IMG/VR virus record: IMGVR_UViG_3300032087_002691 | Location: 1 to 58,510 of that record | Reading direction: 5' to 3' (one strand) | DNA from: a virus | Taxonomy: Duplodnaviria; Caudoviricetes | Length of the DNA stretch: 58,510 nt | Shown: positions 31,051 through 49,827 of the stretch, in pieces | Layout of the letters: each line of letters begins with the position of its first letter | Position numbering within the stretch: the first letter of the stretch is position 1 | The notes under the pieces: model-generated | Databases searched by the model: none | Told to the model about the DNA's origin: nothing | What the model saw: the letters and a program-made list of their open reading frames with translations, nothing else | Translations under genes and position numbers: made by a program

Positions 31051-31058
31051 CAAAGATA
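31051..31058 (-). promoter_or_regulatory. TATCTTTG -7 element, leaderless geometry, for the T9SS-cargo gene
   Basis: Minus strand reads TATCTTTG-CGCT-ATG(31046). Confidence 0.75.
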
Positions 31059-31064
31059 CCCTTA

Positions 31065-32957: not shown

Positions 32958-32970
32958 GATGCCCAAAAGT

Positions 32971-35456: not shown

Positions 35457-35472
35457 GATTTAATTTAAATGT

Positions 35473-35535
35473 TGAGGGCGGAGGGGAATCGAACACCACA
35501 CATACACCTGTTCATGTATGTCACCATGCGCCCTT
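35473..35535 (-). ncRNA. D-armless tRNA-like RNA / pseudo-tRNA
   Basis: AGGGCG/CGCCCT acceptor-like stem, ACATACA/TGTATGT hairpin, TTCGATT T-loop in an imperfect stem. Confidence 0.5.
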
Positions 35536-35540
35536 ATTCG

Positions 35541-35617
35541 TTCGGAAGGGGGGACTTGAACCCCCATGTGACCAGTTACTCTTTCTACAAGGTATAAGCT
35601 TGAGGAGATACTTCCGA
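35541..35617 (-). tRNA. Non-canonical tRNA-like RNA with a UAU (Ile) anticodon loop
   Basis: Perfect 7-bp acceptor TCGGAAG/CTTCCGA, perfect T arm GGGGG-TTCAAGT-CCCCC, CAAG-CTTATAC-CTTG arm, rearranged core. Confidence 0.7.
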
Positions 35618-35635
35618 TAGTTTACTTGCTGTTTG

Positions 35636-35709
35636 TACCCCCGACAGGATTCGAACCTGTGACCGTTTGCTTAGAAGGCAAATGCTCTATCCAGCTGAGC
35701 TACGAGGGC
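35636..35709 (-). tRNA. tRNA-Arg(UCU)
   Basis: GCCCTCG-TA-GCTCAGCTGGATAGAGC-A-TTTGC-CTTCTAA-GCAAA-CGGTC-ACAGG-TTCGAAT-CCTGT-CGGGGGT-A canonical cloverleaf. No encoded CCA. Confidence 0.97.
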
Positions 35710-35715
35710 AGAGGT

Positions 35716-35788
35716 GGGTGGCTTTGTTTCCTAGAGGTGCTATGACTATACCTCGTTGTAGGCTCTCCCTACACACCATACGCCACCC
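35716..35788 (-). ncRNA. tRNA-sized multi-stem structured RNA
   Basis: 7-bp closing stem GGGTGGC/GCCACCC enclosing TGTAGG/CCTACA and GAGGT/ACCTC hairpins. Confidence 0.55.
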
Positions 35789-35793
35789 TAGAA

Positions 35794-36042
35794 TCAGAAC
35801 GGCATCCCGTCCGCTGACGTTTCAGCTGGCTTGCTCCAGGACGCTGGGTCTTCGATGACGGCCCAAGCGTTGCCTTTGTTGTTCTGCTCCTTGTTCTTGG
35901 TGATGTTCACCTTGATGTAAACGTTGCCCTTCTCTGTGGCAAACTGCTTCATCTGCTCCAACTCAGACAAGCTGAACTTGACCTTCATGGAGACGTGTGG
36001 TTCTACGTAACCTACGTAGTTGTTGTTGTTGTCCTTTGACAT
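35794..36042 (-). CDS. Putative single-stranded DNA-binding protein
   Basis: Small beta-rich protein with an SSB-type acidic C-terminal tail (ADGMPF), near the recombination genes. Confidence 0.65.
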   Translation of the reverse strand: MSKDNNNNYVGYVEPHVSMKVKFSLSELEQMKQFATEKGNVYIKVNITKNKEQNNKGNAWAVIEDPASWSKPAETSADGMPF

Positions 36043-36053
36043 GGTAAAAAAAA

Positions 36054-36326
36054 TTAATGGTTTAATGTATTAACGAAGTCGTTGTATGTATTTCTAAACG
36101 CAGGAATCATCATCTTATTGTCTCCGTGTACGCGAAGTAGCCAGAGCTCGTTGCTAGTACACTTGAGGGGCTCGCGTAGTTCTGAATACGTAAGCTTCTT
36201 GTCGACGATGAGGTATCTAACTAAGCTGCACTTAGCGTTCCATAAAGGGGCCTTGTACTTTGTAGCTTGAGTGACGTCAGTGCCGAAGTACTCGCTTGCT
36301 TTATTGATGATTTCTTCTGTGTTCAT
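36054..36326 (-). CDS. Hypothetical helical protein (possible degenerate DnaA-C HTH)
   Basis: EEII...SEYFG...LTYSEL pattern. Confidence 0.55.
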   Translation of the reverse strand: MNTEEIINKASEYFGTDVTQATKYKAPLWNAKCSLVRYLIVDKKLTYSELREPLKCTSNELWLLRVHGDNKMMIPAFRNTYNDFVNTLNH

Positions 36327-37108
36327 ATCTCTTGATAGTTGTAGTATGCGTCTGAGATGATTGACCCATCTAGGTATTGCTTAATCTTCTCAACCGATGT
36401 ATTAAACTTCTTTTCTCCTGATTCTATTGTTTGGGGAGTCGCTTTATATACTCCGACAGCGTAGGGGAATGTCTTTTCTTGGACCACCCAGTAGTAATCC
36501 TCTACGCCGAACACCTTGCAGTAGATGTATGCTTGGATGTCGTACCCAAACTTGAATACATCGTATCTGAATCCGCTCATGCGCTGAGTCGTCTTGCTGT
36601 CAGAGATGTAACCATCCCCCTTGCAGTCTAGGAATCCTCTGACGGGGATATCATCCCCTTGGACACCATCTATGAAGCTGTTGAACTCTACTTGGTATTC
36701 TCCGTTGAGGAACTCGTCGCGAACTGGTGTCTTGTCGAGTCGTTCAATCATCTCCATTGCTTGCCTGTAGTCGTTGTTGTTGACAACAGACTTACCATCG
36801 GTGGTTGCTTTCATCGTGTGCTCCTTCAACCACTCCTTGTACTTCTTGGTAGAGCGGGGAGCTCGTCCACCTATCTCTGCCGTTATCTTGTCGTCGTTAA
36901 ATACAACGAACTCTTTATCAAATAGTTGTGGCTCGAACAGAAGCTTGTCGTATATGGAGCCGAACCGAAGAGCGTCGCTGTCCTTACGGATTCGCCCCTG
37001 CATATACATCTCCCAAAGCTTGATGTCTTTGAGGGCTTCCTTGCAGGAGGAATAGGAAAGGTAACCTTTGCCTACTCGCTCCGCAAGTTTGTTCGCAAAC
37101 TCCATCAT
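36323..37108 (-). CDS. RecE/exonuclease VIII-like PD-(D/E)xK exonuclease
   Basis: LSYS, FGS, RGFLD...DSKTT, YDIQAYIY, VQEK..PY motifs. Confidence 0.85.
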   Translation of the reverse strand: MMEFANKLAERVGKGYLSYSSCKEALKDIKLWEMYMQGRIRKDSDALRFGSIYDKLLFEPQLFDKEFVVFNDDKITAEIGGRAPRSTKKYKEWLKEHTMKATTDGKSVVNNNDYRQAMEMIERLDKTPVRDEFLNGEYQVEFNSFIDGVQGDDIPVRGFLDCKGDGYISDSKTTQRMSGFRYDVFKFGYDIQAYIYCKVFGVEDYYWVVQEKTFPYAVGVYKATPQTIESGEKKFNTSVEKIKQYLDGSIISDAYYNYQEI

Positions 37109-37716
37109 CCGCACACAGACTTCAGGTAGTCGTTCTGCTCTGTTGTCATGCGGCTGCCGTGCTTCTCATCAACAGCTTGGAATGCTGCCAGTGAATTTTT
37201 GCTGTTGCGAATGTAGCTCTCTAGCTGTTCAAGCTCTTGTTCGCTAAGCCCTTTGGACTTAGATGGGGCGGCACTTCTTGGCGCAGGTTTGGATGCGGTA
37301 CGTCCGTGGTCGTTGGTTGCGTCGCTGTCCTTGGTGTCGTCGATGCAGAACAATCCATTCAGAGCATACTTACGTGCGTAGCTTGATGCTGAACCTGTAA
37401 TCTGGGAGGTATCCATACCCTTCTTGTTCTCCTCCTCACGAGCAAAGCCAGATGTCTGTACAGCTTGACCTTCCTTGTTGTGTACGACAGCGGTAGCTTT
37501 CACGTACACCCTACCACCAACATCTACAATCTCATCTGTGATAGTTAAGATAAGTCCGTGACTGCTGAGGTGTGGCTTGACAGCTTCGAGGATGTCCTCA
37601 CACGAGCGGTATTTGTATCCTCCAAACTTATTTGTCTGTCCCTTTGGGGCCTTGAGGGAGGATTGAATTGATGCCATTGATTCTACGATGGCGCTGTAGT
37701 TGTTGTCTTTTGACAT
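37105..37716 (-). CDS. erf: ERF-family single-strand annealing recombinase
   Basis: LKAPK.Q.NKFG.YKYRSCEDILEAVKP...Q.TGSASSYARKYALNGLF.IDD..D.D. Confidence 0.92.
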   Translation of the reverse strand: MSKDNNYSAIVESMASIQSSLKAPKGQTNKFGGYKYRSCEDILEAVKPHLSSHGLILTITDEIVDVGGRVYVKATAVVHNKEGQAVQTSGFAREEENKKGMDTSQITGSASSYARKYALNGLFCIDDTKDSDATNDHGRTASKPAPRSAAPSKSKGLSEQELEQLESYIRNSKNSLAAFQAVDEKHGSRMTTEQNDYLKSVCG

Positions 37717-37750
37717 GGTTCTATGAATTTAATTTTAATCTAGAGGGAGC

Positions 37751-38014
37751 TCAATCTTGCAGTCCAATACCTTCTCGCTGGCTTGGCTTGCTACCTTTAG
37801 GCTGTTTACAAACAGCTTTCTCATTACATACAGAGGTAGCCATAAGATTAGTGTTGTCAGTAGTGCTGTTATCATCACTACCCAGTGCAGTACTTTCATT
37901 TAATTTCTTTTTTAGAGCGGCAATCAACAGCTTCTCCTGCTTCTTTATGGAGCGAAGCAGTATCGCTTGGTTGATTTGTTTTACAAAGTTCGTAAACAAA
38001 ATTGTTAGTTTCAA
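37751..38014 (-). CDS. Hypothetical protein (start uncertain)
   Basis: Only co-oriented ORF filling the gap; non-ATG start. Confidence 0.35.
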   Translation of the reverse strand: MKLTILFTNFVKQINQAILLRSIKKQEKLLIAALKKKLNESTALGSDDNSTTDNTNLMATSVCNEKAVCKQPKGSKPSQREGIGLQD

Positions 38015-38051
38015 GGGTTGGGTTGTTAATTTTATTTAACAGCGTGGTTGA

Positions 38052-38267
38052 TTAGCTGTTAACTGGTTGAGTCTCAATAAATCCGAACTGCTCTGCGTCG
38101 CTCATAATTTTATTAACCTCGACGGTAAACAGGTTGACTGCGCCAGCGGCTTGGGTGTGTGGTTGCGCCATCACAATGCGCTTGTTGTTGTACGCTCTAG
38201 CTAGTCGGTCAAACAGCTTGGCCTTGTCTTGCAACTCAGTCAGGATTTCATCAGGTAGTTTGTTCAT
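38052..38267 (-). CDS. Hypothetical protein
   Basis: ATG ORF in the early operon. Confidence 0.65.
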   Translation of the reverse strand: MNKLPDEILTELQDKAKLFDRLARAYNNKRIVMAQPHTQAAGAVNLFTVEVNKIMSDAEQFGFIETQPVNS

Positions 38268-38272
38268 AACGA

Positions 38273-39295
38273 TTATTTTTTAGGGGTTAGGTATTTTGCT
38301 ACTTGTTCTCTAACGCTAGTCGGTAGATTGTTATTGTCGATGAGACTAATAATTTTTTCTTGAACGATGCCCTTCTTTTCTTGCGTCTCGGCAAGGTGGT
38401 CTTTATGCTTTTGAACTAATTTCTCAGCGTCAGAGATGCGTGAAGGGATGTCCTCTTCGAGGAATTCGAGACGCTTCACCTCCTGAAGATTGCTTGCCAT
38501 TGCCTTTGCTACATCGAAGCTCAACCCATCGGCAACCACATCGTAAATCCACTTGTCAACAACCTCCTCTGAGTCTTCTCTTACACTGAAGCTTATGTAC
38601 CCAGATTCGCCAAGCTTAAGGACAGAGAATGTCTTCTCCTTGACGTTCTTCATGACATCACGAACGATAGCTACGAAGTCGTCCATAGAGATGAACCATC
38701 TGTTTGTGACTACAAGGTCACCCTTACGTATCTTGCCTCGTTCAACGTCCTCAGTGATGGCACGTTCACAAATCTCAAGTTGTCGAGCGTGTTCGTAGTC
38801 CATAGAGAAGTACAGCTCCTTGAGACTATCGTAGTACCCTAGCTGCGTGAAGTCTTGAATCTTTGTTGGGTGAATCTCGTCGGTCAAGCACAGGGTGTAG
38901 TACCCATCAAACTTTACTGCGTATGTGTTTGGTACGGGGGAGCCAGACACTCGACGTGCGTTGACCGCGCCATCGATTTCAAAGGACTTGTCGAAGCATT
39001 GAGACAGCCTGTAGTTAGAAAGCTCAACGTCTATCGCCTTGACCACATCGTCGATAACGATGCCGAGGAAGTTCACGTAGTCGTCGTGCAGCTTTCTGTC
39101 GAATTGAGAATCGCAAATAGCCATCTCTTCGTTAGACATGATTCGCTCCGCGTCCATGAACTTCTTGACCTCCATCCGAACAAACCAATGGCTTGCATCC
39201 TCTCTCTTGGAGCGAGCGTATTTGAACGCATTGGACGCGAGGAACGATTTGGTGACGACGCTTGCGTCAGGTAGTTTTACTGCTGTCTTGCTCAT
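38273..39295 (-). CDS. Hypothetical protein with a C-terminal coiled coil
   Basis: 340-aa ORF in the operon; no motif recognised. Confidence 0.75.
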   Translation of the reverse strand: MSKTAVKLPDASVVTKSFLASNAFKYARSKREDASHWFVRMEVKKFMDAERIMSNEEMAICDSQFDRKLHDDYVNFLGIVIDDVVKAIDVELSNYRLSQCFDKSFEIDGAVNARRVSGSPVPNTYAVKFDGYYTLCLTDEIHPTKIQDFTQLGYYDSLKELYFSMDYEHARQLEICERAITEDVERGKIRKGDLVVTNRWFISMDDFVAIVRDVMKNVKEKTFSVLKLGESGYISFSVREDSEEVVDKWIYDVVADGLSFDVAKAMASNLQEVKRLEFLEEDIPSRISDAEKLVQKHKDHLAETQEKKGIVQEKIISLIDNNNLPTSVREQVAKYLTPKK

Positions 39296-39300
39296 TAGAT

Positions 39301-39702
39301 TTATTTTTTGATGTACAGGTTTGAAACAACCTCATTAAACTCTGATGTAGTAATCTCTTTGTTTCGGACAAGTTGAGATAGCATAACGATTGTACTGCCA
39401 GTGCGTTGTTCTTTTTGCCGAGGGATTTGTATTTCTGTATCATCTTCTTTAAGTACAGAAAGAGTTCCTCGTCTAATTTTTTTATTGATTGCTGTTTGTA
39501 ACGTCAGGAAGTTGCTGTTCCACATCAACCCGCAAAAGTCATTTAGAGTTTGTTTTTCTCTCATGTTTAAACCATTGCCAGACACATAGGTAATCCCTTC
39601 GTGAGGCCCAGACTTATACACTCGAAGCATTCTTTTGTTGAAGTTCTTATCAAAGAACTCGTTCAGCTTGTTGAGGCATTCTTGGTTGTATTTGCTCATC
39701 AT
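39301..39702 (-). CDS. Hypothetical basic protein
   Basis: Start moved to MMSKYNQ because the longer start overlaps the ORF at 39710-39886. Confidence 0.65.
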   Translation of the reverse strand: MMSKYNQECLNKLNEFFDKNFNKRMLRVYKSGPHEGITYVSGNGLNMREKQTLNDFCGLMWNSNFLTLQTAINKKIRRGTLSVLKEDDTEIQIPRQKEQRTGSTIVMLSQLVRNKEITTSEFNEVVSNLYIKK

Positions 39703-39709
39703 ATTGTAT

Positions 39710-39886
39710 TTATAGGTTGATTTCGAAAATTCCTCTCCACTCCTCTCCTTCATTGAAGTCCTCCATGGATTTGTAGTTTGTCTGCATCATGTCGTTCCAC
39801 TCTTGCAGGTACTCATCCATGTCTTCGATGATTACTCCTTCGTGGTACTCGTCGTACTCGACTTGGATGTATATTGACTTACTCAT
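39710..39886 (-). CDS. 58-aa highly acidic early protein
   Basis: MSKSIYIQVEYDEYHEGVIIEDMDEYLQEWNDMMQTNYKSMEDFNEGEEWRGIFEINL, first gene after the promoter at 39919-39944. Confidence 0.7.
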   Translation of the reverse strand: MSKSIYIQVEYDEYHEGVIIEDMDEYLQEWNDMMQTNYKSMEDFNEGEEWRGIFEINL

Positions 39887-39918
39887 AGCTTATTGTATTT
39901 AGGGGTTTCTAGTTTTAG

Positions 39919-39944
39919 AACGCGAGCGCTCTTGGTTTATTGTG
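39919..39944 (-). promoter_or_regulatory. Early-type promoter motif CACAATA-N15-CGTT
   Basis: One of eight copies, each just upstream of a minus-strand ATG. Confidence 0.75.
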
Positions 39945-40196
39945 TTAACGGATGGGAATTCTCTTATCCTCTACATATATGTGCTCAGCCATCATGAATT
40001 CCCTCCAATTCCATCCCTTCTGTGGCCTGCGATTGTCGTCGTGATGGACAGCGTTCTTCCACACGTACACACTCATATATTCAGTGCCTTCATCTAGAAG
40101 TTGATTGATTCTTTTGACGGCTCCGTAGTAGTCCTTCTCGTAGTAGTAGTAAGACTTGCCGCATGGTTGCACTCTGAAAACATTGTTGTATGCCAT
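39945..40196 (-). CDS. Hypothetical early protein
   Basis: 83-aa ATG ORF. Confidence 0.65.
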   Translation of the reverse strand: MAYNNVFRVQPCGKSYYYYEKDYYGAVKRINQLLDEGTEYMSVYVWKNAVHHDDNRRPQKGWNWREFMMAEHIYVEDKRIPIR

Positions 40197-40198
40197 GA

Positions 40199-40306
40199 TT
40201 AATCTTCTTTTTCTTGTTCGTTATCGGCAGATGTAGTTTCGTTGTCATCGGATGTGTCTGCAAACATCTCGAATATCTTAAGCACTTCTTTGGTTGGGTC
40301 AATCAT
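40199..40306 (-). CDS. 35-aa acidic peptide
   Basis: MIDPTKEVLKIFEMFADTSDDNETTSADNEQEKED, directly behind the promoter at 40330-40355. Confidence 0.55.
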   Translation of the reverse strand: MIDPTKEVLKIFEMFADTSDDNETTSADNEQEKED

Positions 40307-40329
40307 TTGTATTGTGTTTCTAGTGTTAG

Positions 40330-40378
40330 AACGTCAGTGTTCTCGGCTTATTGCGTGTCACTTGTTAACGGATGTTAA
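40330..40378 (-). promoter_or_regulatory. Early promoter CGCAATA-N15-CGTT plus upstream TTAACA-N4-TTAACA box
   Basis: Motif at 40330-40355; tandem box at 40363-40378. Confidence 0.75.
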
Positions 40379-40561
40379 ATCTGTAAACTTCCATTCGATG
40401 CAGTCAAGGACAACATTCGTTCGTTGGGGAGAGATGGAGAGGTCAGTAGAAAATTGCTCAAACCATTCTCCATCCATCGTCCTGATATGCTCAAGCATCA
40501 TCACATGGTCAGGTCTCCCAAACAAATACTTCTTTTCAATCTCGTAAACCAAGTTCCTCAT
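40358..40561 (-). CDS. Hypothetical early protein
   Basis: ATG ORF overlapping its neighbours. Confidence 0.55.
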   Translation of the reverse strand: MRNLVYEIEKKYLFGRPDHVMMLEHIRTMDGEWFEQFSTDLSISPQRTNVVLDCIEWKFTDLTSVNK

Positions 40562-40748
40562 ACATCTCAGGTATATCGATGAAGTCAGAGAAGATTGATG
40601 CTATGCCGCGAGCAACGAACTGACTATAGTCGTCGGGGAGCGATGCATACAAGGCATATGACCTGATGACGTCCTCTTTCGGTAGCACATTGCATATCTC
40701 AATAGCTAACTGACGCGCTCGTATTACTTCTTGAATGGATAAGCTCAT
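40536..40748 (-). CDS. Hypothetical early protein
   Basis: ATGA-coupled ORF. Confidence 0.6.
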   Translation of the reverse strand: MSLSIQEVIRARQLAIEICNVLPKEDVIRSYALYASLPDDYSQFVARGIASIFSDFIDIPEMYEELGLRD

Positions 40749-40975
40749 AGGGATTCAAGATTACAGGTGATGTCACCTCGGTTATTCAAGTATCCTTGTA
40801 GGATAAGATTACGTGCGCCACGTCCGTAGCTGCCTTGCAGGTGATTCACCATTCCCGTCTTGATTAGGTTTGAAAATAACACGATGGTGTCTGCGTTATT
40901 CAGCTCTCCAGACTCGAAGGCAATAATGGTGGTGACAAGGTCAACTTTTTTTTGCTTTCTCTTATACATAGTCAT
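40745..40975 (-). CDS. Conserved small phage early protein
   Basis: I.AFESGEL...LF..LIKTG....LQGSYGR.A..LI..G pattern that recurs in phage early regions. Confidence 0.7.
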   Translation of the reverse strand: MTMYKRKQKKVDLVTTIIAFESGELNNADTIVLFSNLIKTGMVNHLQGSYGRGARNLILQGYLNNRGDITCNLESL

Positions 40976-41223
40976 TGAGTTTTAGTTTGGTTTTCTTCGA
41001 TGATGCGGAGAATGTCTCCAAGGTTGTGGAACTTGACGCTGTCTCCGATAACATCCGTCACCCTGCCTTTGTCTAGCTTAACCAAGGCCATCTCTTGTGT
41101 CCCGTCTCCCATCTCCACGAGGGAGATTGACATAGTGTCCGACAGACGGAGTCTTACTTGGGCTCGTTGTGTTCCGACCACATGGGTCATAACTACATCG
41201 ATGTTGTGTGGGTCAAAGGTCAT
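40972..41223 (-). CDS. Hypothetical early protein
   Basis: ATG ORF. Its initiation region is duplicated at 41416-41434. Confidence 0.65.
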   Translation of the reverse strand: MTFDPHNIDVVMTHVVGTQRAQVRLRLSDTMSISLVEMGDGTQEMALVKLDKGRVTDVIGDSVKFHNLGDILRIIEENQTKTQ

Positions 41224-41240
41224 TGTTCTTGGTTTTGTGT

Positions 41241-41423
41241 TTATAGTCCTGCAAGTTGTAGCACATCGGTTGCTTGGCAGTAGTCGTCATAGGTGCCGTA
41301 CAGGTAGATGATGTGGTTGTCGGTGTGCTCTGCGCATCCTACGCTGAACTTGTAACCGAAGGCAGAGAGGACTCCTGATTCCTGTTGGCTATCTGTCTTG
41401 CATAATTGAATTTCGAAGGTCAT
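41241..41423 (-). CDS. Hypothetical early protein (60 aa, MTFEIQLCK...)
   Basis: Start reassigned using the duplicated initiation region AACCAAGARCAATGACCTT. Confidence 0.6.
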   Translation of the reverse strand: MTFEIQLCKTDSQQESGVLSAFGYKFSVGCAEHTDNHIIYLYGTYDDYCQATDVLQLAGL

Positions 41424-41512
41424 TGCTCTTGGTTGTTTTTGATTTCTAGGTATCCGTGAATTGTGGCGCACACGATGGCTCCGATGATGCATATGTACAG
41501 GAGGACTTCCAT
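41420..41512 (-). CDS. 30-aa single-TM peptide
   Basis: MEVLLYICIIGAIVCATIHGYLEIKNNQEQ; stop coupled (ATGA) to the next gene. Confidence 0.55.
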   Translation of the reverse strand: MEVLLYICIIGAIVCATIHGYLEIKNNQEQ

Positions 41513-41528
41513 TTGTTTCTAGTTGAGA

Positions 41529-41621
41529 TTAAGACAAGGAGTAGCTGACGAGCATGTAGGTTCCGACTCCGAATACTGATGCCGCGAGGGACAGGTTGGT
41601 AACAAATAGGATGGCAATCAT
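41529..41621 (-). CDS. 30-aa hydrophobic peptide
   Basis: MIAILFVTNLSLAASVFGVGTYMLVSYSLS, directly behind the promoter at 41655-41680. Confidence 0.55.
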   Translation of the reverse strand: MIAILFVTNLSLAASVFGVGTYMLVSYSLS

Positions 41622-41630
41622 AGCTTTAAG

Positions 41631-41680
41631 TTTTTAGTAGGTTTCTAGTATTATAACGCCCGTGTTTTCTAGTTATTGTG
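41631..41680 (-). promoter_or_regulatory. Early promoter CACAATA-N15-CGTT with duplicated leader
   Basis: Motif at 41655-41680. 41631-41658 matches 41844-41871 at 27 of 28 positions. Confidence 0.78.
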
Positions 41681-41699
41681 TCTGAGTTGTAAAAAAGTG

Positions 41700-41834
41700 T
41701 TAACTATCTTTTTCTTCTGAATTGATGGTGCGCTCGGTCAACTTCTTTGCGAGAGATTTGTTGTGCTTAACTAGTTCTGATTCCTCCACCTTGGAGAGTT
41801 CGACGATAGTGTTGAAGATGTCTTTGACATTCAT
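41700..41834 (-). CDS. 44-aa early protein
   Basis: MNVKDIFNTIVELSKVEESELVKHNKSLAKKLTERTINSEEKDS, between two promoter copies. Confidence 0.6.
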   Translation of the reverse strand: MNVKDIFNTIVELSKVEESELVKHNKSLAKKLTERTINSEEKDS

Positions 41835-41843
41835 GGCATATAC

Positions 41844-41917
41844 TTTTTAGTAGGTTTCTAGTACTATAACGTGGTGGGGAGAACCATATTGTCCTCCCCT
41901 TTGTTAACGGATGTTAA
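41844..41917 (-). promoter_or_regulatory. Early promoter GACAATA-N15-CGTT plus TTAACA-N4-TTAACA box
   Basis: Motif at 41868-41893; box at 41902-41917. Confidence 0.78.
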
Positions 41918-42804
41918 TCTCCGAGGATGCAGTCTACTGCCTTCATCGCTTGGGTGCAGGCACTGACAAGGAACTTCTTGTCGTTGCCAATCTTGCTAAT
42001 CCACCCGTTGATGTATGCCTGCGAGTTTGTGTGGTCAGACTTGGGGCTCAGCCCCACGATGCCTGTCAGGAATTCGGCACCAACTTCCGCCACCAATTCC
42101 TCCTTGCTATAGTTCTCGTCACCGAAGGAGTTCATGTCAACCAAAGTCTTGCGATTCAACAGACTCTCGTGGCCTGTGCTATGCGTCAGCTCGTGGAAGA
42201 GCACCTTGTAGTAGTCGTCAGCCGACACGAAGGTCTCCATCCTCGGCATCTGAACGTGGTGGGTCGCTGGCCTGTAGTATGCTCGGTCTCCTCCCTGCTC
42301 CAAGGTTGGTCGCCCCTTGAACTTCTCGTAGATGGCGTCAGCGCGCTCGATAGGCGTTGAATCATTGCCAGCTGACACGGGCTCGCGTCTCGGCTCGATG
42401 TCGTCGCATTGGGCAATGTTGAACACGTTGTAGGAGCGCAGGGAGAACAACTTCTCGTAGGCCATACCAACAGGGATGTCAGACTCTTTCTTGTAAATCT
42501 TCTTGTCCTCTCCCTTGAAGAAGATGTTCCAGAAGATGACCATCGTGGATGTCTCTCCCTTGCGGACCTGACCACCAAGCTGAGATGCCTGCTTGTACGT
42601 GAGCCATTCGTTGTGCTCATACTTCTTGTCATCCATCTCCGCGAAGAGGAAGAACACGTTCATCCCCTTGTACGGACGTCCTGTGGCTCGGTTGATTGGG
42701 GCCAGCCCACCTGAACCTTCCCATGGGCGGAACCATGCCATGCCTTTGTCCTTGAGTCCGTTGATGACGCGCTCGGTCACCTTGTCATAAATGTCTTGCT
42801 TCAT
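41914..42804 (-). CDS. ardC: ArdC-family protein (ssDNA-binding domain plus zincin-like domain)
   Basis: IY..VT.RVI..L..G...W.RPW, YKGMN, WLTYKQA..LGGQVRKGE, VFNIAQ, HELTHSTGH..LLNR, YSKEELVAE. Confidence 0.93.
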   Translation of the reverse strand: MKQDIYDKVTERVINGLKDKGMAWFRPWEGSGGLAPINRATGRPYKGMNVFFLFAEMDDKKYEHNEWLTYKQASQLGGQVRKGETSTMVIFWNIFFKGEDKKIYKKESDIPVGMAYEKLFSLRSYNVFNIAQCDDIEPRREPVSAGNDSTPIERADAIYEKFKGRPTLEQGGDRAYYRPATHHVQMPRMETFVSADDYYKVLFHELTHSTGHESLLNRKTLVDMNSFGDENYSKEELVAEVGAEFLTGIVGLSPKSDHTNSQAYINGWISKIGNDKKFLVSACTQAMKAVDCILGD

Positions 42805-42835
42805 AGCTTGTATTTTTAGTTCCCTCTGTTAGTCT

Positions 42836-42862
42836 AACGCTTATCGGTCTCGGATTATTGTG
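42836..42862 (-). promoter_or_regulatory. Early promoter CACAATA-N16-CGTT for ardC
   Basis: Motif copy about 30 nt upstream of ATG 42804. Confidence 0.75.
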
Positions 42863-43043
42863 TTTGAGACTCTTTGAACTCAATGGTGAGTTGCTCGATT
42901 GTCTTTCCGTCATTCAGAATGTCTGCACGAGTATTCAACCATGCCACCATATCTCGCAGGAACTCCGCTCCCGCGTCTACGTTTTCTTCGCCATTTGGTG
43001 CTTGGTATGGCGTATCCTTGAAGTTATAAATGTCTTGCTTCAT
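42855..43043 (-). CDS. Hypothetical early protein sharing its first 6 codons (MKQDIY) with ArdC
   Basis: 23-nt identity between 43026-43048 and 42787-42809. Confidence 0.65.
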   Translation of the reverse strand: MKQDIYNFKDTPYQAPNGEENVDAGAEFLRDMVAWLNTRADILNDGKTIEQLTIEFKESQTQ

Positions 43044-43053
43044 AGCTTTTTTA

Positions 43054-43149
43054 TTAGAGTTCGTTGTACGCTAGAGTGAACGCAATCGATACGATTGTTA
43101 TTGTGAAGACTATCAACATAACAGCGTTTGGGTCATTTAAGATGCTCAT
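43054..43149 (-). CDS. 31-aa single-TM peptide, first gene of the early arm
   Basis: MSILNDPNAVMLIVFTITIVSIAFTLAYNEL behind the promoter at 43193-43219. Confidence 0.5.
   Translation of the reverse strand: MSILNDPNAVMLIVFTITIVSIAFTLAYNEL
43079..43105 (-). promoter_or_regulatory. Early promoter CACAATA-N16-CGTT
   Basis: Motif copy upstream of ATG 43043. Confidence 0.7.
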
Positions 43150-43192
43150 AGCGTATAAAAATTAAAGGGTTGGGGTTGTGTGTTTCTTAGTT

Positions 43193-43241
43193 AACGATTT
43201 TCGCTTTCTGGATATTGTGCAGAAGTGTTAAGCGATGTTAA
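43193..43241 (-). promoter_or_regulatory. Early promoter CACAATA-N16-CGTT plus TTAACA-N4-TTAACA box
   Basis: Motif at 43193-43219; box at 43226-43241. Confidence 0.78.
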
Positions 43242-43613
43242 CGAGTTCCCATTGGTGGGGTTACCTTTCTGGCTGATGAATCGTGGGGGTTGATTGTCCC
43301 GCGTGTTTGGGTCTCGCGTTTCTGTGTCCAGTTCATCGGTCTCTTGGGGGAGAATAAAAATCTGAAATCATAATCTGAAACTTGGAATCGTAAAAGCGGA
43401 AAAGTCAGACCCCTAGGGTTCAGGATTCGGTTTCGGTTGGAGTACCACACGACGTGTACATGTACATAATCCCCTAGGTGTGTATATCTGACCCATTTTC
43501 ACATAACTTTGCATAAGAATTATATGCCACCATGTCTTGTATCCTACTCATTTCTGTCAGTTTCTTAGCCTTATTGTTGCACCACTTCTATCCCAACAAG
43601 AACTACTAGTCAT

Positions 43614-43661
43614 TTAACACTAGTTAACACTTGACTTTTAAAAAAATAAGTAGTACCTTTG
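43614..43661 (+). promoter_or_regulatory. Rightward Bacteroidota promoter TTG-N20-TACCTTTG preceded by TTAACA-N4-TTAACA
   Basis: Box at 43614-43629, TTG at 43631-43633, -7 element at 43654-43661. Confidence 0.75.
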
Positions 43662-43672
43662 CTATGCTCTTG

Positions 43673-43756
43673 AGCGGTTATGGTCTTAAGGGTTTGGACT
43701 TGGGGTCCCACCCTTAATCAGACCTTTTAATTCCTAAGGGAGTACAAAACACCGCT
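43673..43756 (+). ncRNA. Structured RNA or leader immediately downstream of the rightward promoter
   Basis: AGCGGT/ACCGCT closing stem enclosing a GGTC-TTAAGGGT-GGAC/GTCC-ACCCTTAA-GACC hairpin and a small TTCC/GGAG hairpin. Confidence 0.55.
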
Positions 43757-43787
43757 AAATAAATAAGTATCAAGGGCAAGCTGTGCC

Positions 43788-43955
43788 ATGGATATAAATG
43801 AATTTCAACTAGAGTTACTGAGGCAAGCTGTCTCAAACTCGCGAGGGCAGCATACTGCCAGGGGTAGACGTAGGGCTATGGCTAGAGCCTTAGATAAACT
43901 ATCCTCTAAACACAATAATGTAGGTGATGACTCGTTAGAGGGTCATGAAGAATAA
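43788..43955 (+). CDS. 55-aa hypothetical protein
   Basis: MDINEFQLELLRQAVSNSRGQHTARGRRRAMARALDKL...; read manually, overlaps the next start. Confidence 0.5.
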   Translation: MDINEFQLELLRQAVSNSRGQHTARGRRRAMARALDKLSSKHNNVGDDSLEGHEE

Positions 43956-44217
43956 AGAACCTATCTATATGTGTGACGTTGTCTTGTATGATGGCAAGGC
44001 AAAGAAGGAATACAAGCTGTTTGATTCAATCCTGGTTGGTAACGACAAGGGTTTGATATGGGGTAACCCCTATTTCAGGGGGAAGCTTATCAGGGATATC
44101 TTCAAGACGAAGGCCAGAATAGCCCGACAGCAAGACAACCTACACCTTATATGTAGGCACATTGAGTTCAAGAAGTTTATTAGTCACTCCAACGTAAATT
44201 GGGGTTGCACTAAATGA
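43945..44217 (+). CDS. Hypothetical protein
   Basis: 90-aa ATG ORF. Confidence 0.65.
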   Translation: MKNKEPIYMCDVVLYDGKAKKEYKLFDSILVGNDKGLIWGNPYFRGKLIRDIFKTKARIARQQDNLHLICRHIEFKKFISHSNVNWGCTK

Positions 44218-44230
44218 CTATATTTGCACC

Positions 44231-44617
44231 ATGAGAGTAAAGAAAAACACATACTATGGCCTCGGTGGCATGATGAAGACGTACCGCGAAGGCGGTATGA
44301 TGCCAGAAGAGGGTCAACCAATGGGTCAACAGGGCGGTATGGCACCTCGTGAGGGTGGCATGGCACCTGAACAAGGTCGCCCACCTATGGAGGGTCAGTC
44401 TGAACAACCTCAGTTCTCCGAGGAGGAGGTCATGGAGATTGTCAACGAGGTACGCCAGTACTTCTCTGAGGTCATGCCTGACACGCAGCTCCCACCAGAG
44501 TTTATTGCCAAGGTGGCTGAAGCATACGCTATGTCTGGCAGAAACCCTGCGGTTCTCGAAGAGGCTGTTAAATACGCACAGGGACAGGGCGGTGAAGACC
44601 AGCAAGCGGTCCGATAG
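44231..44617 (+). CDS. Met/Gly/Gln-rich protein with repeated xxGGM motifs
   Basis: YGLGGMM, YREGGMM, QQGGMAP, REGGMAP. Preceded by TATATTTG-CACC-ATG. Confidence 0.7.
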   Translation: MRVKKNTYYGLGGMMKTYREGGMMPEEGQPMGQQGGMAPREGGMAPEQGRPPMEGQSEQPQFSEEEVMEIVNEVRQYFSEVMPDTQLPPEFIAKVAEAYAMSGRNPAVLEEAVKYAQGQGGEDQQAVR

Positions 44618-44783
44618 AAAGAAACTAACCGTTTCCTCCAAAAAAATTTCCGTCCCGCCTCCAGCGGGATATCATTGGATGGAGGAAGGGGGCAGGTATT
44701 ACCTGATGAAGGGTGATTACCAGCCGCACCCTGGTGCCATGAAGGAAGCTGAGTTTAAACTAGCTACCCATGGGAAATCGTAA
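44592..44783 (+). CDS. Small basic conserved protein (PPPAGYHWM motif)
   Basis: GTG start at 44592, 3' part of the ORF-track entry 44349-44783. Confidence 0.55.
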   Translation: MKTSKRSDRKKLTVSSKKISVPPPAGYHWMEEGGRYYLMKGDYQPHPGAMKEAEFKLATHGKS

Positions 44784-45162
44784 ACAACCATATAAGATGG
44801 GGTGGCCTAAGAAATACTTCAAGGGCAAACCCAACAGTGGCTCCGACGCCAGCTGGAAAGAGAGTATGGATACGAGAAAGGAGGCTTATGAGGCTGGCGA
44901 GAAGATAGATTTCGATGATGTATTGGAGGATGGTGGTAAGATTAAAGCCAAGCCAATAAACGACACCGTAAAGAAGACACTTAAAAATAAATCCAAGGAA
45001 TCTGGTATATCATACGGAACACTAGCTAAGGTGTACCGACGTGGTCAGGGGGCTTGGATGTCTGGGGGCAGTAGGAAAGGGGTAGGCATGGCTGGCTGGG
45101 CCATGGGGAGAGTCAACAGCTTTATCAAGGGCTCTAAGAAGCACGACACAGACTTGAGATGA
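44770..45162 (+). CDS. Basic conserved phage protein (DUF5824-like)
   Basis: L..KSKESGISYG.L.KVYRRG.GAW...WAMGRVNSFI. Confidence 0.7.
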   Translation: MGNRKQPYKMGWPKKYFKGKPNSGSDASWKESMDTRKEAYEAGEKIDFDDVLEDGGKIKAKPINDTVKKTLKNKSKESGISYGTLAKVYRRGQGAWMSGGSRKGVGMAGWAMGRVNSFIKGSKKHDTDLR

Positions 45163-45287
45163 AGAAGCAGGTATCGACATACCTGTCAAAATCTGTGCGC
45201 AGAAAGGGCGTCCACGCAAAGACCAAGTCCTCTAAGAACAAGAGGAGCAGGCTATATAAGAAGAGAAATATAGGTCAGGGTCGATAG
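45159..45287 (+). CDS. 42-aa very basic peptide ending GQGR
   Basis: MKKQVSTYLSKSVRRKGVHAKTKSSKNKRSRLYKKRNIGQGR; ATGA-coupled. Confidence 0.7.
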   Translation: MKKQVSTYLSKSVRRKGVHAKTKSSKNKRSRLYKKRNIGQGR

Positions 45288-45302
45288 TATTATATTTGCC
45301 GT

Positions 45303-48113
45303 ATGGCAAACAAAAGACTATCACAACTCTTTATGGGGCTCGGTCAAGCACCTAGAAGAAAATATTTCTATGTAGGTGGGGAGATGGACCCTATGATGGA
45401 CCCCTCTATGGGCGACCCAACGGACCCCACAAAGCCGTCAACTAATGGTGACGGCGACCCTAAGAAACCAGCTAACGGCGAGACGGAACCGACGGATGGC
45501 GTGGTAACGGTTCAAAGACTACCAAGGTCAGAACAGAGACGTTTGACGTGGCCTATGACGCAGCCCGTAACATACGAGGGTACAAACATTGTTTCTGCTG
45601 AGGGGATGCAGCGACGCCCAGAGGAGTCGGACAGGGAGTATGAGCTCCGCATGCAAAACAGCAATATGCTTGGCGGTAAGAGTCTTCATTTGCCACGTGA
45701 GGGTGGTTATACCGAGGAGTCGGCACGAGTTCGTTACGAACCTAACGTAGGCATGATACAGGCCGAGACTGCTGGCAATATCGCTGCATACAATAAAGAC
45801 CACTCCCTCCTCTCCTCCGAATTGACAGAAGACGAGTTCAACAGAGTTGCTGCAAGTCCGTTTGCAAAAAACTATCTTCAAAAGGAGGGCGAGCCATTGA
45901 CGAGGGAAAATATTGCTGACAGATATCTTGAGTATACTTATCGTGTAAATGAGCTCTTTGATTTCAAAGACGACCCAGAAAAGAGGCAGAATCTTTTAAA
46001 TAAGATTGACTCCATGGCGGCGGATAACGCTAACTTCGCAACGAAGCTTGAGGGTCTTAGTGAGGATAGAAGGCTTGAGGTGACTAAGGATATGATGACC
46101 GATGGGAAGATTGGTGACTTCCATGGGGCTATACTAGACGATGAGGGTATATGGAGAGACACTCATTACTTTAAAGCCACGCCTTTTGACCCAAATTTCG
46201 TCGGTGACCAAAAAAAGTCTCCTTTTGTTGCGGATGCATGGATGCTATTTGGTGAGATTCCGCAGAGTGCAAACGTGATTTATGGTGTAGGGAACAGAGG
46301 GCTCCAGCCTAAAGACTTTGCTCAAGCATACAGCATGATGAAGGAGGAAGGTTTGGACCCAACAAATCCAGACCAGGAGGAAGAAGTGAAAGACTGGTAT
46401 GCGTCGAAATTCGATGAGGGGGTATTTAAGCCAATGAACATGAGGCTAGAGTACGGCCCAGGTGGCTCTAAGGGAGGAAACAGGATGGGTGGTGTAGCGA
46501 GTTTGGAACGAAGCCCATACAACGAGTTCCTGAATCAACTAGCATCGGAATACATAAGGAGCCCAGAAGCACGGGCCGCTGGTCAATATTACACGCCTGC
46601 AAAAGGTTTCGAAGGGAATCTTGATTACATGAGGGGTAATTTTCAGCTTGCAGGTAACCTTGATGATTCTCAAAGAGGTTTCGAAGGGATGCCGTCGCAA
46701 CAGAGCTTTGTTGTTTACAAAGACGACGGCGTACCAGACCGATTTGTTAATCAAGCAGAATATCTGTCTAAGAGATTATACGGGGAGATGGGTATTGAAT
46801 CCGACCCAGAAACCATTCAAAGAATGCTTGACAGTGAGGGGGGTATTGAGGAGCTTAGTAGGCAAACTGGCATTGAACTCCGTAACCTCAACTATATGTT
46901 GCAGGATGAATATGAAAAGGATAGACAAGAAGCTGGTAGAATTATACTTGATGATTTTATGGGGGCACGGTACGGTAGTCAAGCAAACGATATGTTTTTG
47001 ACTGCCGCTGGGGCTGAGAGAACATATTTTACAAGAAACCCCGATAAATCCAGCGCTAGATATCTTGTTCCAGGAGACTTTGATTTATCACCAGGAACGA
47101 AGGTTGCAATGGGCGGAGAGCAATTTCCTCTTCTCCGCACCGACGCGAGGACTGGAGACGACACGTTTTATAACACTGCGATGATAGTCAACAAGCAAAG
47201 CTTTCCTGGGGCTTTTACCTCACTAGCTGAAAGCCCGTGGTACTATATGCAGACTGAAGCTGGGCAAAAGCGTTTGACGAGAGCAATGAGTGAGAAAGAG
47301 CAAGAAGCAACCGAGGCCGAGGCTAGGCAAGCGTTCCTTGAGCAAGTTCCAGAAGAAGACAAGGCAGCTGCTGAAAAATTTGTCGACAGCGACCGCCCAT
47401 GGAAGCAACAGTTGAGGGTATCTGTTACGGGCGACGACGAGGAGAGTAGGTTTTATAACAACTGGCTTTCAGAGAAGGGTATCCAACCTTATAACTTGGA
47501 GAGAGAAGACTACGACCAGCTTAAGAAAGACTATGGTACTTACCTGGAGTCAGGTGTTGGTGCAGATGAGGACCAATCATCAAACATATCATATAAAGAG
47601 AAGCAAAATATTCTTGGAGAAGTCGCTGAGAAATTCGTTACTTATTCTGACTTAAGTAAAAGAAAGCAGGAAAAATCTACTAAGGCTCTTAGCGTTCCAG
47701 AGGTGCAGAAAAAACTTTCAAGCGGTGAGTGGACATTAGAGGATGTAAAGAAATACTTAAACGAGCCTGTCGAATATGATTATAAACCAACGAGGCTCGA
47801 TAAAGACTTTACTGAACCGACAAGAAAGTTTGCCAACCCGCCAGCACAGACGGGGTCGTCGACTTCCTCTTTCGCAGGAGGAGGAAAGGTCTATGCCTTC
47901 GGTGGTGTTATGGACAGTGTAGACGAATCAATGCCATCTACAGGCAGGGTTATAGATATGAGAGACATGTCTCCTAATGGAAAGTTGAAAAGACTGTTTG
48001 GAGCAATGAGAGCTGAGAGAGGGATGCGTATCCCTACCGAAGCAGGTGACCTCATGAACTTTATCGATAGCCTCAACAAAAGGTTTGTTAAGCCTAGAGG
48101 CGGGATGAGATAA
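45303..48113 (+). CDS. Large acidic putative virion cargo protein
   Basis: 936 aa flanked by (Y/F)xxGG motifs. Own TATATTTG-CCGT-ATG promoter; terminator after the stop. Confidence 0.7.
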   Translation: MANKRLSQLFMGLGQAPRRKYFYVGGEMDPMMDPSMGDPTDPTKPSTNGDGDPKKPANGETEPTDGVVTVQRLPRSEQRRLTWPMTQPVTYEGTNIVSAEGMQRRPEESDREYELRMQNSNMLGGKSLHLPREGGYTEESARVRYEPNVGMIQAETAGNIAAYNKDHSLLSSELTEDEFNRVAASPFAKNYLQKEGEPLTRENIADRYLEYTYRVNELFDFKDDPEKRQNLLNKIDSMAADNANFATKLEGLSEDRRLEVTKDMMTDGKIGDFHGAILDDEGIWRDTHYFKATPFDPNFVGDQKKSPFVADAWMLFGEIPQSANVIYGVGNRGLQPKDFAQAYSMMKEEGLDPTNPDQEEEVKDWYASKFDEGVFKPMNMRLEYGPGGSKGGNRMGGVASLERSPYNEFLNQLASEYIRSPEARAAGQYYTPAKGFEGNLDYMRGNFQLAGNLDDSQRGFEGMPSQQSFVVYKDDGVPDRFVNQAEYLSKRLYGEMGIESDPETIQRMLDSEGGIEELSRQTGIELRNLNYMLQDEYEKDRQEAGRIILDDFMGARYGSQANDMFLTAAGAERTYFTRNPDKSSARYLVPGDFDLSPGTKVAMGGEQFPLLRTDARTGDDTFYNTAMIVNKQSFPGAFTSLAESPWYYMQTEAGQKRLTRAMSEKEQEATEAEARQAFLEQVPEEDKAAAEKFVDSDRPWKQQLRVSVTGDDEESRFYNNWLSEKGIQPYNLEREDYDQLKKDYGTYLESGVGADEDQSSNISYKEKQNILGEVAEKFVTYSDLSKRKQEKSTKALSVPEVQKKLSSGEWTLEDVKKYLNEPVEYDYKPTRLDKDFTEPTRKFANPPAQTGSSTSSFAGGGKVYAFGGVMDSVDESMPSTGRVIDMRDMSPNGKLKRLFGAMRAERGMRIPTEAGDLMNFIDSLNKRFVKPRGGMR

Positions 48114-48133
48114 TCATCTAAACATAGTGTAAT

Positions 48134-48163
48134 AAAGAAAGCCCCTTTCGGGGCTTTTCTTTT
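48134..48163. terminator. Bidirectional rho-independent terminator
   Basis: aaagaaagcccc-tttc-ggggcttttcttt between convergent genes. Confidence 0.9.
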
Positions 48164-48668
48164 ACTTAACCCATCCTGCTGGCGGAGTTTCACATCCGTG
48201 ATTTACACAGAAGAAAACGGGGTCAGTGTCAGAAATCTCAACCCCAACTACTGGCGCACTATTGATAGGGTTGGGTAGTCTAAGACCACCACCATTGTGA
48301 AACGCTGCCCTTTCAATTTGAGCAACAGTGCTACCTATCAGCTCTCCCGTTTGAGCGTGAACCAGTCGTATGTGGTAGAACCCCCAGTTCTCATACCCCT
48401 CCTCAACCATAAACTCTAGCACCCATTCTCCGTCATACTGACTAGCCTGCGCGGAGTGCTTATCGATAGACGCCTGAATTTCTTCCTCCGTCATACGCTC
48501 GTGGTAGTCCTTATCCCACCAGTAAGGAGAGTACTTAACGTCCTTCCATACTTCCCACTTGACGGCTGCGAGACTATCAACCTTGACGCCTACACACGCC
48601 CTAATGAGAACCTGTGAGAATGATGTGGCTGCTACAAGCAGCAGGGGGATGACAATTAACTTCTTCAT
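48162..48668 (-). CDS. Secreted/periplasmic protein (moron-like)
   Basis: Signal peptide MKKLIVIPLLLVAATSFS-Q. Own early-type promoter and terminator. Confidence 0.75.
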   Translation of the reverse strand: MKKLIVIPLLLVAATSFSQVLIRACVGVKVDSLAAVKWEVWKDVKYSPYWWDKDYHERMTEEEIQASIDKHSAQASQYDGEWVLEFMVEEGYENWGFYHIRLVHAQTGELIGSTVAQIERAAFHNGGGLRLPNPINSAPVVGVEISDTDPVFFCVNHGCETPPAGWVK

Positions 48669-48713
48669 GGTGAATATGAATTTATTAGATTTGTGGTTTG
48701 TTTCTGTCTCTAT

Positions 48714-48739
48714 AACGACGGCAGATTTTGGATATTGTG
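48714..48739 (-). promoter_or_regulatory. Early-type promoter CACAATA-N15-CGTT outside the early arm
   Basis: GCACAATATCC...CGTTATA, matching the copy at 43193-43219. Confidence 0.75.
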
Positions 48740-48754
48740 CAAACTAGTGTTAAA

Positions 48755-49796: not shown

Positions 49797-49827
49797 TGAA
49801 GTATATTTGTGATGTAAAATTAAAGAC

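Follow-up and report, generated by a model that had tools for sequence, protein, structure and literature searches.

A repeat resembling mapped flavobacterial ECF-type promoters precedes the putative early genes of an uncultured podovirus

The subject of the present study is an uncultured marine virus of the class Caudoviricetes, IMG/VR record IMGVR_UViG_3300032087_002691, the 58,510 bp of which (the window, i.e., the whole stretch analysed) represent a complete phage genome on one contig, and a short repeated element on its minus strand that resembles promoters read by extracytoplasmic function (ECF) sigma factors. A stop-to-stop frame of about 1096 aa, 57144–58510 joined to 1–1921 (plus strand), spans the window ends, indicating that the contig was assembled as a circle. 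The plus-strand genes are mostly structural and packaging genes. Judged solely from gene content (an ArdC-like anti-restriction protein, Erf, an exonuclease, a primase–helicase and many small open reading frames, ORFs), the genes of a leftward block on the minus strand would be expressed early in infection, and it is mainly in front of these that the repeat is found (Table 1).

The pattern CACAATA-N15/16-CGTT occurs seven times in the window against an expectation of 0.04, a number reached by none of 100 shuffled sequences. Six exact copies lie on the minus strand (39919, 41655, 42836, 43079, 43193 and 48714) and one on the plus strand (43911). The first-pass annotation had listed eight minus-strand copies; all eight sites exist, but those at 40330 (CGCAATA) and 41868 (GACAATA) each carry one mismatch. 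When a single mismatch is allowed there are 15 matches (nine with N15, six with N16) where about 1.6 are expected. The minus-strand interval 34938–48739 contains 11 of them, three being weaker sites not listed earlier (38312, 36097 and 34938). At the eight minus-strand sites, CGTT is followed after 45, 43, 35, 31, 33, 33, 23 and 32 nt by the next ATG that opens an ORF of at least 25 aa, a range of 23–45 nt compared with the about 25–45 nt given earlier. Four copies (39905, 40316, 41641 and 41854) are followed by CTAGAAAC, as had been noticed. CGTT is present at all eight sites, separated from ACAAT by 16 nt in five of them and by 17 nt in three.

An alignment of 50 distinct sites, from the window and its relatives, revealed a three-block anatomy: (C/G)ACAATA, a gap of 15 nt (28 sites) or 16 nt (22 sites), CGTTA, and then A(G)AAAC beginning 12 nt past the C of CGTT. 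As CGTT belonged to the search pattern, its invariance in this set is not independent. A purine and a C precede ACAATA, an A/T-rich stretch follows CGTT, and the third block, counted from the C of CGTT, occupies +12 to +16 and reads A-G-A-A-A; its first A is present in 39 of the 50 sites and in seven of the eight copies of the window. A sigma-dependent promoter is consistent with this two-block layout, whose gap varies by a single base, with the start-like third block, and with the strict orientation of the copies and their spacing from the ATG. The tolerance of a 15- or 16-nt gap is what separate contacts of sigma regions 2 and 4 would lead one to expect. Folding gave a notable hairpin at only one of the eight sites (41854..41893, -6.8 kcal/mol), where the first block lies in the loop of a GGGGAG/CTCCCC hairpin downstream of the ArdC stop codon; the other seven have z-scores of -1.34 to +0.87 relative to shuffles. 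The repeat therefore has no shared hairpin of the kind found in N4-type promoters.

The same blocks can be read differently, as an E. coli-type sigma-A promoter with TTAACA as the -35 and CACAAT as the -10 element, CGTT and AGAAAC then being parts of the leader. A sigma-70 scan does list TTAACA-N16-18-(C/G)ACAAT at 43241, 41917 and 41703, but this accounts for only three of the eight sites, and the 45 nt that precede ACAATA show no conservation, and no -35 sequence, across the 50 sites. The Bacteroidota sigma-A promoter, as given in PMC9723704, is TTG...TAnnTTTG, which is the form seen on the other genes of this phage. An E. coli-type promoter is thus extremely improbable.

The sigma-A box in the form TATATTTG has seven copies where 1.94 are expected, every one of them on the plus strand; six lie 4–21 nt before the ATGs at 3105, 6989, 44231, 45303, 49828 and 54312. 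Another sigma-A-type box, TATCTTTG, precedes the ATGs at 16978 (plus strand) and 31046 (minus strand). TAnnTTTG was not found on the minus strand at 39.9–43.3 kb or 48.7 kb, and so at none of the eight repeat sites; the contrast drawn in the first-pass annotation, between the repeat and a TAnnTTTG class used by structural genes, is borne out, and by its sequence the repeat is evidently not a Bacteroidota sigma-A promoter. One minus-strand gene, 49323–49829, runs against the flow of the plus-strand genes and specifies a protein of 144/168 aa that is found in all relatives compared (41–77% identity), with and without the motif alike. A role in controlling the late genes with sigma-A-type promoters is possible. 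In MW202828, an annotated ‘repressor protein’ lies on the opposite strand upstream of the terminase gene. The two divergent gene blocks are separated by a gene-free gap of 340 bp (43451–43787) containing two rightward sigma-A-type boxes, at 43504 (TAACTTTG) and 43654 (TACCTTTG). Downstream of the latter is a stem-loop with a T-run (43681–43735), and the 77-nt stretch 43664–43740 folds at -26.3 kcal/mol (z -2.15), which could represent a short RNA or an attenuator.

Comparison with relatives shows that the repeat is conserved. More than 565 terminase relatives are present in IMG/VR, and of 81 loci around relatives' terminase genes 10 contain the motif, with 22 copies in total, each before an ATG and on the strand that does not carry the terminase gene. 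Five uncultured relatives were examined as whole records (G001–G005), and on their early strand ACAATA-N15-17-CGTT was counted 9, 8, 11, 7 and 2 times, while the reversed control gave 0; G003 and G005 are 68% and 85% complete, and the two copies of G005 are both clear. Motif discovery, one of the checks proposed in the first-pass annotation, returned the same signal, as a blind count of dyads in upstream regions ranked CAATA..CGTT first in G000, G001 and G003. Five relatives (loci L002, L006, L007, L008 and L010) have the blocks of the 48.7-kb copy unchanged around a variable spacer, and the ORF downstream has no homolog in G001. That blocks are kept while spacers and downstream genes change indicates a functional signal and not merely inherited flanking sequence. 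Five other relatives of like terminase identity (73–76%) have no early-strand motif (G008 shows two isolated matches against two in the control, the other four none), and it is also missing from the deposited or cultured relatives MW202828, elemoA, phi38:1, phi13:2, Calle_1 and Gundel_1. In a motif-less sister clade (G006 and G007), early ORFs are instead preceded by an inverted repeat with a 13-bp stem and a 12-nt loop, TATATACTCTCTC...GAGAGAGTATATA, and then by CAAACTTCAA.

A second small repeat accompanies the first. The 10-mer TCCGTTAACA, within CATCCGTTAACA, has three exact minus-strand copies (39943–39952, 40363–40372 and 41902–41911), each 0–16 nt upstream of a motif copy, and eight matches with up to one mismatch, where 2.8 are expected. 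Its position just upstream of three copies suggests that other proteins may bind there, and the genes behind the motif are swapped among relatives; both would suit an element that is not a promoter but a boundary left by cassette shuffling, or an operator bound by a phage protein, for example the 144/168-aa protein at 49323–49829 or the 166-aa protein that resembles DnaA domain IV. Such a role is very improbable, since the motif lacks dyad symmetry, is strictly oriented to genes at a fixed distance from the ATG, and has two blocks and a start region that match a mapped promoter class, while the candidate binding proteins also occur in motif-less relatives.

ECF promoters in general have the form AAC-N16/17-CGT. 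The phage repeat resembles them in its pair of short blocks with CGT at the core of the -10 element, in its spacer of 16–17 bp and in its low tolerance for deviation, and differs in having AAT in place of AAC in the -35 block and no autoregulated sigma gene adjoining it. ECF promoters have been scored with 16–18-bp spacers and require near-consensus sequence (bioRxiv 10.1101/2020.06.23.168245), and this requirement fits the rigidity of the phage copies. The closest parallel is found in the start-site map of Flavobacterium psychrophilum (PMC9723704), which includes a sigma-ECF class, SM6, with a CGT box at -12 to -10 and the start at C+12. SM6 promoters are induced at low nutrients and lie upstream of genes for type IX secretion and for Band-7 proteins, as well as of one ECF sigma/anti-sigma pair. 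Ten SM6 rows of its Table S2 all show a 5-mer, 16 nt, CGT and a start at C+12; four are of the type GTAAC..CGT(A/C)T, two ATACT..CGTTT and four ACAAT/ACAAC/AAAAT..CGTT. To the last type belong the promoters of gldN (ACAATA-N15-CGTTTT), the small RNA Rfp11 (ACACAAT-N16-CGTTATAAT), yceA (ACAAC..CGTTT) and porU (AAAAT..CGTTA), those of gldN and Rfp11 being ACAAT-N16-CGTT(T/A)T like the phage copies. The copy at 41641–41680, CACAATA-N15-CGTTATAATACTA, is the closest match to the Rfp11 promoter. Judged by these rows SM6 is a mixed class; no sigma factor is assigned to it, and the phage copies add an invariant CACAATA and a conserved AGAAAC start region. In its geometry, and almost in its sequence, the phage motif thus agrees with a subclass of mapped flavobacterial promoters of ECF type, in line with the ECF-like reading of the first-pass annotation. 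Its conserved A at C+12 coincides with the SM6 start position and is taken as the predicted start.

The repeat is interpreted here as a probable ECF-type early promoter, and a host-encoded sigma factor on the host core enzyme is preferred as its reader, at somewhat less than an even chance. The (C/G)ACAAT block would serve as the -35 and CGTTA(T) as the -10 element with a spacer of 16 or 17 bp, and transcription would start at the conserved A about 12 nt past the C of CGTT, the first base of AGAAAC. The reader would be the bacterial core RNA polymerase carrying an ECF-family (group 4) sigma already in the cell at infection, most likely a host-encoded one of the class that reads the ACAAT...CGTT promoters of F. 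psychrophilum (those of gldN and Rfp11, and further of porU and yceA). The eight strong copies, with as many as three weak ones, could then drive the leftward early genes (small ORFs, the ArdC-like protein, recombination genes and the primase–helicase) and one lone minus-strand gene, while the structural, packaging and lysis genes of the plus strand would use the sigma-A box TAnnTTTG. In its widest form the proposal is that a clade of uncultured marine flavobacterial podoviruses starts infection via the kind of host ECF sigma that in Flavobacterium serves gliding and type IX secretion genes (gldN, porU) and turns to sigma-A only for virion genes, which seems rather unlikely.

Part of the case for a host factor is that the phage appears to lack one. 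No sigma or RNA polymerase family was detected among 35 large window ORFs searched against Pfam and PHROGs, 38 smaller window ORFs against Pfam (E-values up to 1), 38 window ORFs against NCBIfam, or 65 of the 81 ORFs of 100–420 aa in G001, G003 and G005 against Pfam (the 16 omitted lying mostly in the structural parts). Crude patterns for sigma regions 2 and 4.2 had no match in six frames of G000, G001, G003 and G005. As far as Pfam and NCBIfam scans can tell, the earlier statement that the phage has neither a sigma factor nor an RNA polymerase is correct.

Several considerations weigh against a host sigma. Divergent phage sigmas can escape Pfam and NCBIfam. ECF sigmas are usually held by anti-sigmas, so that one free at the moment of infection would need explaining; most ECF promoters also have AAC in the -35 block, where the phage has AAT. 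Among the ten SM6 rows of PMC9723704, AAT is found in just three (gldN, Rfp11 and porU) and AAC in five, while the phage copies never have AAC. The host of the phage is not F. psychrophilum, the organism in which SM6 was mapped. A scan of host genomes, as proposed in the first-pass annotation, gave no clear excess over control: in five Flavobacteriales metagenome-assembled genomes (MAGs), found via the CHU_C protein described below, ACAATA-N15/16-CGTT had 2–7 matches against 0–14 in the control, and of 401 Flavobacteriales genomes 114 had a match to CACAATA-N15/16-CGTTA, the reversed control looking similar by inspection of its unsummed columns. Among fifteen recurrent matches inspected, one group of seven related genomes has an intergenic copy 34–37 nt before a gene for an HExxH lipoprotein, and the remainder look coding, when translated by eye, or unclear. 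A like motif lies upstream of gldN in just two (L158 and L159) of the 30 gldN loci from 61 Flavobacteriales genomes. Transcript data point neither way, as two marine metatranscriptome runs contain 6–7% of the words of 39800–43500, and over 30300–50000 they yield contigs of 151–265 nt, at a depth of 2–3, that carry neither transcript ends nor strand. The rightward sigma-A-type boxes in the 43451–43787 gap would allow a sigma-A-driven immediate-early step. Finally, the copies are very uniform and conserved through +1, as are promoters of phage-specific polymerases, and the distribution of one very large phage protein follows that of the motif, as set out next.

The protein in question is specified by a 3880-aa ORF, which occupies the position of the injected polymerase in crAss-like phages, and it is the one serious phage candidate for a factor delivered with the virion. 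Three motif-bearing relatives, G001, G002 and G003, have homologs of its full length and a fourth, G005, shares two of its domains, while five motif-less relatives of similar TerL identity have no match to its first 3000 aa. The adjoining 583-aa protein has a comparable distribution (Table 1), and the sister clade differs both in its early element and in its giant proteins, which have no sequence relation to that of the window. These correlations, together with the uniformity of the copies, would suit a promoter of the same type that is read with the help of a phage specificity factor (sigma-like or sigma-adapting). The factor could be delivered with the DNA, for example as a domain of the giant or as the 583-aa protein, or be made from the sigma-A-type promoters at 43504 and 43654 before the leftward genes are switched on; the 90-aa ORF 43945–44217 has homologs only in G001 and G003 among the relatives compared. 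Such a factor is possible, if unlikely. All the scans and crude patterns above failed to find a sigma factor, and G005 keeps its two clear copies yet lacks the 583-aa and 90-aa proteins and has just two widespread domains of the giant. One of these two is common in unrelated phages and the other also occurs in elemo phages, which lack the motif (tblastn of the giant against phages). The features shared with G001/G003 and G005 but absent from G006/G007 are pieces of the giant, the tail-fibre part 650–1924 and the 96-aa ORF 3105–3395 only, the last two both lying in the structural part.

What can be recognised in the giant looks like a polyvalent (multi-domain injected) protein, its domains being shared piecemeal. 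It is a mosaic among relatives, with 55% identity over 3239 aa to G001 and two domains in common with G005. An L5_gp82-like domain of about 250 aa (aa ~1747–2005) gave 1346 library hits, in proteins of 172–5358 aa, and elsewhere adjoins ART-PolyVal, GNAT or helicase domains. An HExxH motif at aa 1246–1250 is invariant in four homologs, and an Atlas search of the giant gave leads to LPD families only.

The podovirus N4 injects a giant protein of about 3500 aa and has few early promoters, with hairpin promoters for its virion RNA polymerase. It is conceivable that the giant of the window, like proteins of N4 and of the crAss-like phages, acts as a virion RNA polymerase, though one of a new kind, with the repeat as its promoter. 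Unlike N4, the repeat has no shared hairpin, although the sister clade G006/G007 does carry its 13-bp-stem inverted repeat. In phi14:2, an injected protein, gp66, with a DFDID site reads the early genes, and host sigma-A polymerase reads the middle and late genes, no early motif having been found (bioRxiv 10.1101/2020.03.07.982082). The window is like phi14:2 in that its virion module is related, in that a giant gene follows the tail/muzzle genes, and in that sigma-A-type promoters serve the later genes and not the early ones, so that the division between early and middle–late genes is the same; the third block in G003, ACTATAGAA, also recalls T7/SP6-type initiation regions. Unlike phi14:2, the window has a strong early motif and no giant with the catalytic DxDxD. 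In the window giant, DxDxD occurs only at aa 96, and none stands at a conserved place across six giants, so that by sequence the giant lacks the catalytic motif (DFDxD/DxDxD) of crAss-like virion RNA polymerases; nor do crude patterns find T7-like motifs B or C conserved across the giants. Searches of the giant against all PDB chains (phmmer and a four-sequence profile) gave nothing better than E 0.1 and nothing to a polymerase. Its last 981 aa (aa 2900–3880) are predicted to be all-alpha, at a predicted local distance difference test (pLDDT) score of 58.5, too low for a fold search. The 1-nt variation in the gap is also unlike promoters of single-subunit polymerases, and the common early motif here has no counterpart among the phi14:2 early transcripts. 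A virion polymerase is accordingly improbable. One further candidate, a DYDND sequence in the ORF that wraps around the window ends (57144 to 1921), was rejected as a polymerase motif because it sits in a tail-fibre-like repeat protein, with collagen-like GPAGADGADGADGQG repeats and duplicated halves.

The preferred reading, a host ECF sigma acting on the early genes, has a partial precedent in phiEco32 and 7-11, which encode ECF-like sigmas (PMC8948821). The proposed arrangement is like theirs in that a phage promoter class would be read via a sigma-family specificity subunit on the host core enzyme, and unlike theirs in that those phages encode the sigma, of which family scans detected none here. 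A literature search found no report of this motif, of a lytic phage using a host ECF sigma for its early genes, or of such an arrangement combined with sigma-A for the late genes, which is not proof of absence. Lytic phages are expected to start from promoters of the host primary sigma or with their own injected polymerase, and an ECF-based early class would be unusual wiring. If true, infection would depend on the state of the host, its success hinging on the regulon of an alternative sigma instead of on the primary one, and the early programme would be licensed by the state in which the cell builds the surface machinery that such phages likely use. The repeat would also provide a testable way into the transcription of marine Flavobacteria phages, a little-studied kin of the crAss-like group that lacks its polymerase motif. 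Its 40-nt consensus could be used as a probe for sorting metagenomic phage genomes by early-promoter type, and is a candidate orthogonal promoter for Bacteroidota genetics.

Table 1. Locations of the repeat copies and of the genes discussed; positions refer to the window unless another record is named
Feature	Coordinates	Strand	Remarks
Putative promoter copy	48700..48739	-	CACAATA, N15, CGTTATAGAGACAGAAAC; predicted start A at 48705
Gene behind the 48.7-kb copy (lone minus-strand gene)	48162-48668	-	168 aa, signal peptide
Putative promoter copy	43179..43219	-	CACAATA, N16, CGTTAACTAAGAAAC; most upstream copy of leftward block; before 31-aa ORF (ATG 43149)
Putative promoter copy	43065..43105	-	CACAATA, N16, CGTTCACTCTAGCG; before ORF 42855-43043 (62 aa); third block poor, C at C+12
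Putative promoter copy	42822..42862	-	CACAATA, N16, CGTTAGACTAACAGAGG; before ArdC-like gene 41914-42804
Variant copy	41854..41893	-	GACAATA at 41868-41893, N15, CGTTATAGTACTAGAAAC; before 44-aa ORF (ATG 41834)
Putative promoter copy	41641..41680	-	CACAATA, N15, CGTTATAATACTAGAAAC; before 30-aa ORF (ATG 41621)
Variant copy	40316..40355	-	CGCAATA at 40330-40355, N15, CGTTCTAACACTAGAAAC; before 35-aa ORF (ATG 40306)
Putative promoter copy	39905..39944	-	CACAATA, N15, CGTTCTAAAACTAGAAAC; before ORF 39710-39886 (58 aa)
Weaker internal copy	38298..38338	-	GACAATA, N16, CGTTAGAGAACAAG; in 3' end of ORF 38273-39295; before ORF 38052-38267
Weaker internal copy	36083..36122	-	GACAATA, N15, CGTTTAGAAATAC; before ORF 35794-36042
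Doubtful copy	34924..34963	-	AACAATA, N15, CGTTGAGCC; 161 nt before primase-helicase gene 32971-34776
Exact plus-strand copy	43911..43950	+	C+12 = A of ATG 43945 (90-aa ORF)
Leftward early-type gene block	31065..43450	-	Many small ORFs, ArdC-like, Erf, exonuclease, tRNA-Arg, primase-helicase, PD-(D/E)xK-like nucleases
ArdC-like anti-restriction gene	41914-42804	-	Pfam ArdcN and MPTase-PolyVal; PHROG anti-restriction protein
Erf	37105-37716	-	Family scans
DUF3799 exonuclease	36323-37114	-	Family scans
tRNA-Arg (TCT)	35635-35709	-	Within early block
DnaA-C-like (DnaA-domain-IV-like) 166-aa protein	34956-35456	-	Weak match; family scans
BT4734-like/DnaB-like primase-helicase	32971-34776	-	Family scans
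223-aa protein with CHU_C type IX secretion signal	30375-31046	-	Sigma-A-type box TATCTTTG at 31058 upstream
3880-aa giant ORF	16978..28620	+	Behind muzzle gene; polyvalent-protein-like
583-aa protein adjoining giant	15194-16945		Full-length homologs in motif-bearing G001 and G003; none in G006 and G007
Muzzle gene, 1829-aa protein	8511-14000		Pfam crAss_MUZ_C
Large terminase (TerL)	52151-54262	+	Pfam/PHROG scans
Portal	54312-56756	+	Pfam/PHROG scans
Sister-clade inverted repeat	G006 61.7-65.1 kb; G007 ~60.1 kb		Loci L124, L127 and L128

Several window proteins match ‘virion structural protein’ PHROGs, and these, with the terminase, the portal and the C-terminal domain of the muzzle protein, mark the phage as a podovirus and distant kin of the crAss-like phages. 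The phage relatives found are Flavobacterium elemo, Cellulophaga, Tenacibaculum and Maribacter phages, at 22–45% identity. The 223-aa CHU_C protein would be phage-borne and exported by the type IX system of the host, and its residues 24–52 match proteins of Flavobacteriales MAGs; the CHU_C signal, these short matches and the phage relatives together point to a host among the Flavobacteriales.

A few copies and genes deserve separate mention. With C+12 on the A of an ATG, a transcript from the plus-strand copy at 43911 would be leaderless; this copy has no match on the corresponding strand in G003, the sole G001 match lies in a structural gene, and it may have arisen by chance. The sequence of the weak copy at 36083..36122 is identical in G001 and G002, but is within coding sequence. 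No DNA polymerase family was found in the whole window by family scans, and the mid-size early proteins resemble PD-(D/E)xK nucleases or the weakly matched DnaA-domain-IV-like protein, or have no assignment. A 936-aa ORF of low complexity has just two homologs and no family match, and a 340-aa ORF used as bait among viral contigs retrieved no relative. A 127-bp ‘direct terminal repeat’ of G001 (L112 and L115) was considered as a physical genome end and rejected, as it maps inside the ArdC-like gene (window 42566–42690) and so reflects an assembly overlap.

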